Source: Centroscyllium fabricii (taxonomy: Eukaryota). Taken from it: a DNA stretch of 64,000 nucleotides. The position numbers and the translations under genes are program-made. Under the pieces are notes generated by a model. The model did not search any database and was not told the DNA's origin. It was given only the letters and a program-made list of their open reading frames with translations. Shown here one piece after another: positions 27,282 to 28,453 of this stretch. How positions within the stretch are numbered: position 1 is the stretch's first letter; each line of letters opens with the position of its first letter. The stretch is from assembly GCA_051313645.2 (NCBI GenBank), contig JBNRSN020000019.1, forward strand, positions 80,662,001-80,726,000, written 5' to 3'.

Positions 27282-27753
27282 TTTTCCCATTAACATAGGA
27301 GTCAATTACAAAGGCTATTAAAACATATTAAGCACGTCAGCTATTTCAGACAATGGTGGATCAAACGGTGGCTATCACCATTGTGATATTGAAGCAGGTG
27401 AATAAGATTTACCTACTAATTTCTCTTCATGTTCATCACTTCGATATGTTCTCTTGGACTTGTGTTGCAGTCGCTTTCAGTTTTGATCGCTTTATAGCAG
27501 TTTTACTGCCCAATTATTAGAGCGGGCAAACCGCATTAACACCAGTGCACCAGTTGTCAGCGGTGGGGTTTTTGTTAAGATGCTTAATGGGTTCAATTGA
27601 CAGTTCTGTCTCTCCCATTCTAACCAGTTTATTTTACATAGGTTAACACCTCCACTAAAATAGCAAAGGAATGCCATGTGACTGAATTAAGCCCTTGTCT
27701 GCTAACATTCCCCAACAGTCAGCTGTAGGTTTTGGCAGGAAGGAATTACTTGC

Positions 27754-27887
27754 CTCATTTTCTCTTTGGCCTCCTCAAAGCTTTCTGACAAAAAATAAGC
27801 TTCCTGGAAGGTAGTGATGAGGCATTCCTGGGTGCAGGTTGTCTTTGGCTCGAATGGCTTCACAATGGCTTTGTCCGACAGTGCGTG
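27754..27887 (-). CDS. TPH2: TPH exon (equivalent to exon 10), 134 bp; GC donor
   Basis: [52 protein letters not shown] and FQEAYF are TPH2-type. Acceptor tcacag, donor GAG|gcaagt. Confidence 0.93.
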
Positions 27888-27955
27888 CTGTGAGAGACAG
27901 TTACGGGTAAATCAGAAATCACTTGGTTATGAACTACAAGCAGATTTTATTGTAA

Positions 27956-28323
27956 CATAGAAACATAGAAACATAGAAGATAGGAGCAGGAGTAGGCCAT
28001 TCGGCCCTTCGAGCCTGCTCCGCCATTCAATGAGATCATGGCTGATCATCCAAACCCAGCACCCCGCCCCTGCCCTCTCCCCATATCCCTCGATCCCTAT
28101 CGAGCCTGTATGGACACATATCCCACCCTATCCCCATAACCCCACATATTCAATCCCCCTAACACTAAGGGTCAATTTATCCTGGCCAATCAACCTAACC
28201 CGCACATCTTTGGACTGTGGGAGGAAACCGGAGCACCCGGAGGAAACCCACGCAGACACGGGGAGAATGTGCAAACTCCACACAGATAGTACCCGAGGCC
28301 GGATTTGAACCCGGGTCTCCAGT
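27956..28323 (-). mobile_element. HE1-type SINE filling most of the 470-bp TPH intron 9
   Basis: V-domain and CR1-like tail. Confidence 0.88.
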
Positions 28324-28357
28324 AAGTAGAAAAAAAAATCAAAAAATAATTTCTTGC

Positions 28358-28453
28358 CTTTAATTCTCCGATAGAAGACAAAAGTCCCGCACCATAAGCA
28401 CGTAGTTGTCCTTCTTGCATACAGAGCCCGAACTCCACAGTGAAGAAGTAACA
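28358..28453 (-). CDS. TPH2: TPH exon (equivalent to exon 9), 96 bp, with the iron-ligand Glu; GC donor
   Basis: [32 protein letters not shown]. Acceptor ctacag, donor AAG|gcaaga. Confidence 0.93.

Follow-up and report, generated by a model that had tools for sequence, protein, structure and literature searches.

Two consecutive GC-AG introns in the TPH2 gene of the shark Centroscyllium fabricii

The closest described system is intron 3 of tetrapod TPH2, known from the TPH2a and TPH2b forms (Grohmann et al. 2010, PMC2813293). In the accessible part of that paper this intron starts with GC in tetrapods and with GT in fishes, and is followed closely by a GT at +6, whose demonstrated use keeps the frame and inserts Gly-Lys. 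Bird models with EEGK at the intron 3 site agree with this. The shark locus is alike in being the same gene with a GC donor and a GT shortly downstream. It differs in that the donor of its intron 3 is GT, that its GCs stand at introns 9 and 10, and that a putative second donor at +4 would shift the frame.

The wider class is formed by U2-type GC-AG introns (PMC2490688, PMC7242645, 10.1101/479493, as far as their available text goes), with which the shark introns share the GC start, the AG acceptor with its pyrimidine tract, near-consensus flanks and a patchy species range. GC donors account for approximately 0.8% of coding introns (PMC7242645), and GT and GC donors are both treated as canonical U2 sites in the portion seen of 10.64898/2026.06.30.735536. 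Most transcripts with one GC-AG intron hold only one (PMC7242645), whereas shark TPH2 has two in a row. A third likeness is to tandem donors four bases apart, GYNN/GT (PMC2423196, excerpts; a slash marks the exon-intron border throughout), to which GYAA/GT at intron 10 corresponds as a putative case; this pattern alone occurs in about half of all donors. Our literature search, with most subscription papers outside its coverage, found no report of a GC donor at intron 9 or 10 of TPH2, nor of one in sharks, and the pair is apparently an undescribed instance of a well-known class.

Gene model and the two GC introns

The window, i.e. the whole stretch of 64,000 nucleotides analysed here, contains exons 6 to 10 of a shark TPH2 gene on the minus strand. 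The exons were placed on contig C700 by searching the species' own genome, and the whole gene has 11 coding exons with an open frame and encodes 480 amino acids. Its donors are GC at introns 9 and 10 and GT at the other eight.

47809..48005, minus strand: TPH2 exon 6, GT donor (gene model)
46832..46967, minus strand: TPH2 exon 7, GT donor (gene model)
40259..40385, minus strand: TPH2 exon 8, GT donor (gene model)
28358..28453, minus strand: TPH2 exon 9, 96 nt, in-frame cassette length, CYFFTVEFG...SIGELK (homology to human TPH2)
27754..27887, minus strand: TPH2 exon 10, 134 nt, HALSDK...AKEKM plus AG (homology to human TPH2)

The predicted protein is approximately 94% identical, without gaps, to the TPH2 models of Heptranchias and Pristiophorus, and in the protein search the translation of exon 10 was identical to a TPH2-like protein of Pristiophorus. 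The gene is nearer to TPH2 than to TPH1, TH or PAH and has the TPH2-type N-terminal extension; a separate TPH1-like gene lies on contig C557, and three PAH/TH-like genes lie elsewhere in the genome. Exons 9 and 10 align end to end with residues 357-388 and 389-432 of human TPH2 (7wiy), so that their borders are fixed by homology. Both the TPH2-like identity proposed by the first-pass annotation and its main observation, two consecutive GC-AG introns behind exons of 96 and 134 nt, are thereby borne out. A fused TPH2 model of a sturgeon includes a Ras-domain part whose match (93% identity) lies approximately 200 kb upstream of the gene, on its strand; this fits the usual TPH2 neighbourhood, presumably RAB21 and TBC1D15 on the upstream side.

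Two peculiarities of the protein were seen. In exon 9 a Met (GLCMQ, 28418-28420, minus strand) takes the place of the Lys present in most of the other vertebrate TPH proteins viewed (K368 in human TPH2); this codon shows no difference in a second species, organism C. At the C-terminus, the end of the tetramerisation helix, MNTSLGS replaces the usual MNKHLGI (G000:C700, ~80651950-80651980).

28350..28360, minus strand: intron 9 GC donor, AAG/GCAAGAAA (sequence and read contigs)
27888..28357, minus strand: intron 9, GC-AG, 470 nt, 3' end CTCACAG (sequence)
27952..28321, no strand assigned: high-copy repeat in intron 9, 370 nt, GTAA at both borders (join in read contig X12 and repeat matches)

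Exon 9 is followed by GCAAGAAATT, so the intron starts with GCAAGA. The closest GTs lie at -22 and +47 from the exon end, both out of frame, in agreement with the earlier statement that no GT is near. The short-read contigs of X1 and X3 show 0 differences over 28321-28560, including the donor; both samples belong to one study and may be this DNA's own source. Run X6 yielded no contig over the interval, which carries no weight either way. In organism C the contig X12 spans the same interval in one piece with 12 differences; the 8 listed ones include none at 28356-28357, and the remaining 4 probably lie close to the contig ends.

These contigs bear on a very improbable reading, namely an assembly error at either GC or at both, or else a decaying gene. 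The read-contig check covers the intron 9 donor, and the exon 9 Met and the C-terminal MNTSLGS could be taken as signs of decay. Against this stand the identity of X1 and X3 at the donor, the lack of a listed difference in organism C at the donor or the Met codon, a frame intact over 11 exons and, for intron 10, a parallel GC implied in squamates. For intron 9 the error reading is largely refuted, as the GC is upheld by X1 and X3.

The repeat starts 36 nt past the GC donor, and a 148-nt part of it has 16 further matches within the window. It is absent from organism C: a loose end of X12 joins directly to sequence near exon 10, and this flank-to-flank join gives an intron 9 of approximately 100 nt for that species. 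The repeat looks like a shark element of the HE1/V-SINE type. It brings several new GTs near the weaker GC donor. Six RNA runs shared 0.07-0.10 of the sequence words, likely from the repeat.

27746..27756, minus strand: intron 10 GC donor, GAG/GCAAGTAA (sequence)
1..27753, minus strand: in-window part of intron 10 (exon 11 begins at G000:C700:80652120)
27742..27752, minus strand: +4 GT site overlapping the intron 10 donor, CAA/GTAATTCC (weak with U1, -3.0 kcal/mol)

Exon 10 is followed by GCAAGTAATT, so this intron starts with GCAAGT and has a GT at +4. Its total length is 37,633 nt, in line with the more than 27 kb read from the window at first. A link between the GC donor and intron length was rejected, because intron 10 measures only approximately 110 nt in a squamate-like ORF reading across it (P0018).

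Donor strength and chance expectation

The 5' end of U1 was taken from this shark's own genome, and pairing was scored as a duplex energy rather than by a trained splice model. The donor of intron 10 has 8 of 11 U1 matches (-7.6 kcal/mol) and that of intron 9 has 7 of 11 (-4.8 kcal/mol), while the GT donors of the gene range from -4.5 to -7.8 kcal/mol. The strong surrounding consensus claimed for both sites is thus found at intron 10; the fit at intron 9 is poorer and only moderate. U1 snRNA genes form large arrays at G000:C767 (~21.64-22.11 Mb) and on C669, with many copies approximately 11.3 kb apart.

The +4 GT has 7 U1 matches (-3.0 kcal/mol) and is without the -1G and the +5G. If it were a working alternative donor, a truncated TPH2 unable to form tetramers would result, a reading we regard as improbable. 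The predicted product has 445 amino acids, of which the last 21 are foreign, and a stop in the last exon; the loss of the C-terminal helix foreseen in the first-pass annotation is therefore correct as a predicted translation. In its favor, shifts by four bases are the most frequent kind among short alternative donors in human (PMC2423196, in part), and the solved TPH1 construct 3hf6 ends 7 residues past the end of exon 10, so that a near-complete catalytic core is possible. The pairing is weak, however (-3.0 versus -7.6 kcal/mol), and a GT at +4 turns out not to be the special feature it had seemed. It is simply the donor consensus at +5/+6, which is present in approximately 47% of human constitutive donors (PMC2423196) and in 5 of the 8 GT donors of this gene. 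The isoform appears in 0 of 42 named cartilaginous-fish models, predicted models being an insensitive test, and two lizard and snake models that might recall it look artefactual (Varanus and Ophiophagus, see below).

At a rate of 0.8% an adjacent GC pair has a probability of approximately 6e-4 per gene with 10 introns, and approximately 11 such pairs are expected by chance per genome; this estimate assumes 190,000-200,000 introns and independence. Among the paralogue donors viewed in this genome 1 of 20 is GC, too few to judge a genome-wide excess. This one (AAG/GCAAGT, G000:C1001 ~135920) belongs to a TH-like paralogue, at the intron matching intron 6 of TPH2. Shark TPH1 has GT at both sites matching introns 9 and 10.

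In mammals 298 conversions from GT to GC were counted versus 40 in reverse, and neutral fixation in a strong context is the route the authors find more plausible (PMC2490688, passages available). Between 15 and 18% of GT-to-GC changes retain normal splicing, namely those with better U1 pairing (10.1101/479493, partial text), and removal of GC introns is reportedly inhibited by flanking Alus (PMC3167603, partial text).

Donor state and exon use in other vertebrates

The state of a donor in other species was inferred from predicted proteins in which translation continues into the intron, so that the first residues beyond the exon show which donor is there. Following the KM at the end of exon 10 (AG/G..), R-stop, RY, RW or RF stands for GT and RQ for GC. 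The exon 10 end was matched by 267 proteins, 211 of them spliced. The 56 non-spliced ones continue with R-stop (30), RQ (10), RY (5), RW (3), RF (2), SF (2) and four singletons. RQV occurs in 5 proteins (Naja, Lerista and three unnamed squamate-like ORFs), and a read-through of this kind (KM-RQV) requires AG/GCARGT at intron 10. RQG was found in the two models of Varanus and Ophiophagus; both regain the normal frame afterwards and resemble artefacts of gene prediction. RQF is present in two geckos (P0044, P0375), not taken as evidence of GC since a plain substitution fits too, and in Mobula hypostoma, where the model reads KM-RQFIG versus KM-REFAK in a congener. The latter hints that one ray has GC at intron 10. 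R-stop was seen in Gambusia and in ORFs that match the human-type exon exactly.

On the evidence of these predicted proteins, intron 10 likely has GC in squamates as well and GT in mammal-type and teleost TPH2; most read-through ORFs are unnamed and were assigned by likeness, and no informative case came from birds, turtles or crocodiles. At the end of exon 9 the following residue is V (GT) in 34 of 38 non-spliced TPH2-type and in 38 of 38 TPH1-type proteins. An A, which would indicate GC, occurs in none of these 38 and 38, none of which is recognisably from a cartilaginous fish.

The full-length models of cartilaginous fishes share both junctions, GELK/HALS and KM/REF. The protein searches yielded no read-through ORF assignable to this group, and a scan of metagenomes with the exon 10 alignment retained 2 loci out of 596 pattern matches, neither of them vertebrate TPH2.

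GC is thus seen at intron 9 in this shark and probably in organism C, and at intron 10 in this shark and, as implied by the ORFs, in squamates, with one indirect hint for a ray. The first-pass annotation had made the novelty of the pair depend on its not being conserved across vertebrate TPH2, and with GT implied at intron 9 of the other TPH2-type ORFs, and at intron 10 of mammal-type and teleost TPH2, the pair is not pan-vertebrate. Its suggestion of a lineage-specific feature is not supported for intron 10, where GC is implied in squamates; at intron 9 all 34 informative TPH2-type cases point to GT. From parsimony we infer convergence with squamates at intron 10; alternatively, an older GC may have been followed by several reversions. 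GC was apparently gained approximately 4 times at three introns in TPH2 versus not at all in TPH1-type ORFs, which would suggest more gains than expected for a random gene, though the gene was chosen post hoc.

Some models of related species differ in their exon use. Two Chiloscyllium RefSeq models (P0350, P0356), i.e. 2 of the 42 named cartilaginous-fish models, splice exon 8 to exon 11 and omit exactly exons 9 and 10, and three shark models carry another last exon after exon 10. The shark models with skipping or alternative last exons are P0350, P0356, P0353, P0354, P0007 and P0352. The same skip in this gene would lead to a predicted product of 367 amino acids with the stop in exon 11.

It is conceivable, yet unlikely, that two weak donors turn exons 9 and 10 into a co-regulated cassette that tunes serotonin synthesis in elasmobranchs. 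Skipping would remove the active-site iron-binding stretch and shift the frame of exon 11, and the dead product would evade nonsense-mediated decay by its stop in the last exon. The shark models and the 367-residue prediction point this way, as do the alternatively used GC donor of human TPH2 intron 3 (PMC2813293, accessible part) and the Mobula hypostoma model. However, predicted isoforms often reflect rare reads, and 9 protein models from mammals, turtles and teleosts skip exon 9 as well, in groups whose ORFs point to GT at intron 9, so that skipping does not need GC.

Two observations on variable exons in sharks may be added. A similar cryptic exon (LQR..SCCF.GLHFS) is common to Scyliorhinus and Chiloscyllium; the alternative tails of these two genera have no convincing match in intron 10 of the present gene (best E 0.02). 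TPH2 models of Scyliorhinus, Chiloscyllium and Rhincodon (P0342, P0344, P0350, P0352, P0353, P0355, P0357, P0361) conserve approximately 46 extra residues between exons 1 and 2 (WHPSKASMC...CIPDW), possibly a shark-specific alternative exon.

Probable donor turnover and its meaning

The authors consider it probable, judging from sequence comparison, that both are ordinary GC-AG introns of the major spliceosome which arose by separate GT-to-GC changes, are spliced at the GC and yield a normal enzyme of 480 residues. Pairing with U1 at -2 to +5/+7 would offset the mismatch at +2, so that the change would be nearly neutral and could be fixed. The site at intron 10, AG/GYAAGT, would offer a tolerant context, in which squamates on the one hand and sharks or elasmobranchs on the other likely made the switch independently. 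Use of the +4 GT would at most give a minor frameshifted by-product. The splicing control point suggested in the first-pass annotation is not supported by this analysis. A slight cost in splicing efficiency is plausible as a side effect, and some skipping of exon 9 or of exons 9 and 10 might follow from it.

That splicing at both GCs restores a gap-free protein of 480 residues supports the use of these donors. The patchy GC state across species is expected of donor turnover, and the approximately 11 adjacent pairs expected per genome count for drift as well. Against drift count the repeated gains of GC in TPH2, the modelled exon 9 and 10 skipping in Chiloscyllium and the alternative last exons, as weak donors would predict, and also the moderate intron 9 donor with a repeat 36 nt downstream, by analogy with the Alus of PMC3167603 (in its accessible portion). 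The predicted isoforms may rest on few reads.

A bolder version, to which we give slightly less weight than to the cassette itself, would have GC donors evolve again and again in TPH2 (at intron 3 of tetrapods, at intron 10 of squamates and of elasmobranchs, and at intron 9 of sharks) and act, by way of splicing, as a brake on serotonin synthesis in the brain. The shark pair would then define a co-skipped cassette with an inactive product resistant to decay, as predicted for two bamboo sharks.

In practical terms, GC donors mislead automated gene prediction: the end of exon 10 is wrong in several models from squamates and probably in one from a ray, and TPH2 models in squamates and elasmobranch groups need care. 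If the splicing brake were true, it would represent convergent tuning across vertebrates, by weak donors, of the enzyme that limits the rate at which the brain makes serotonin.
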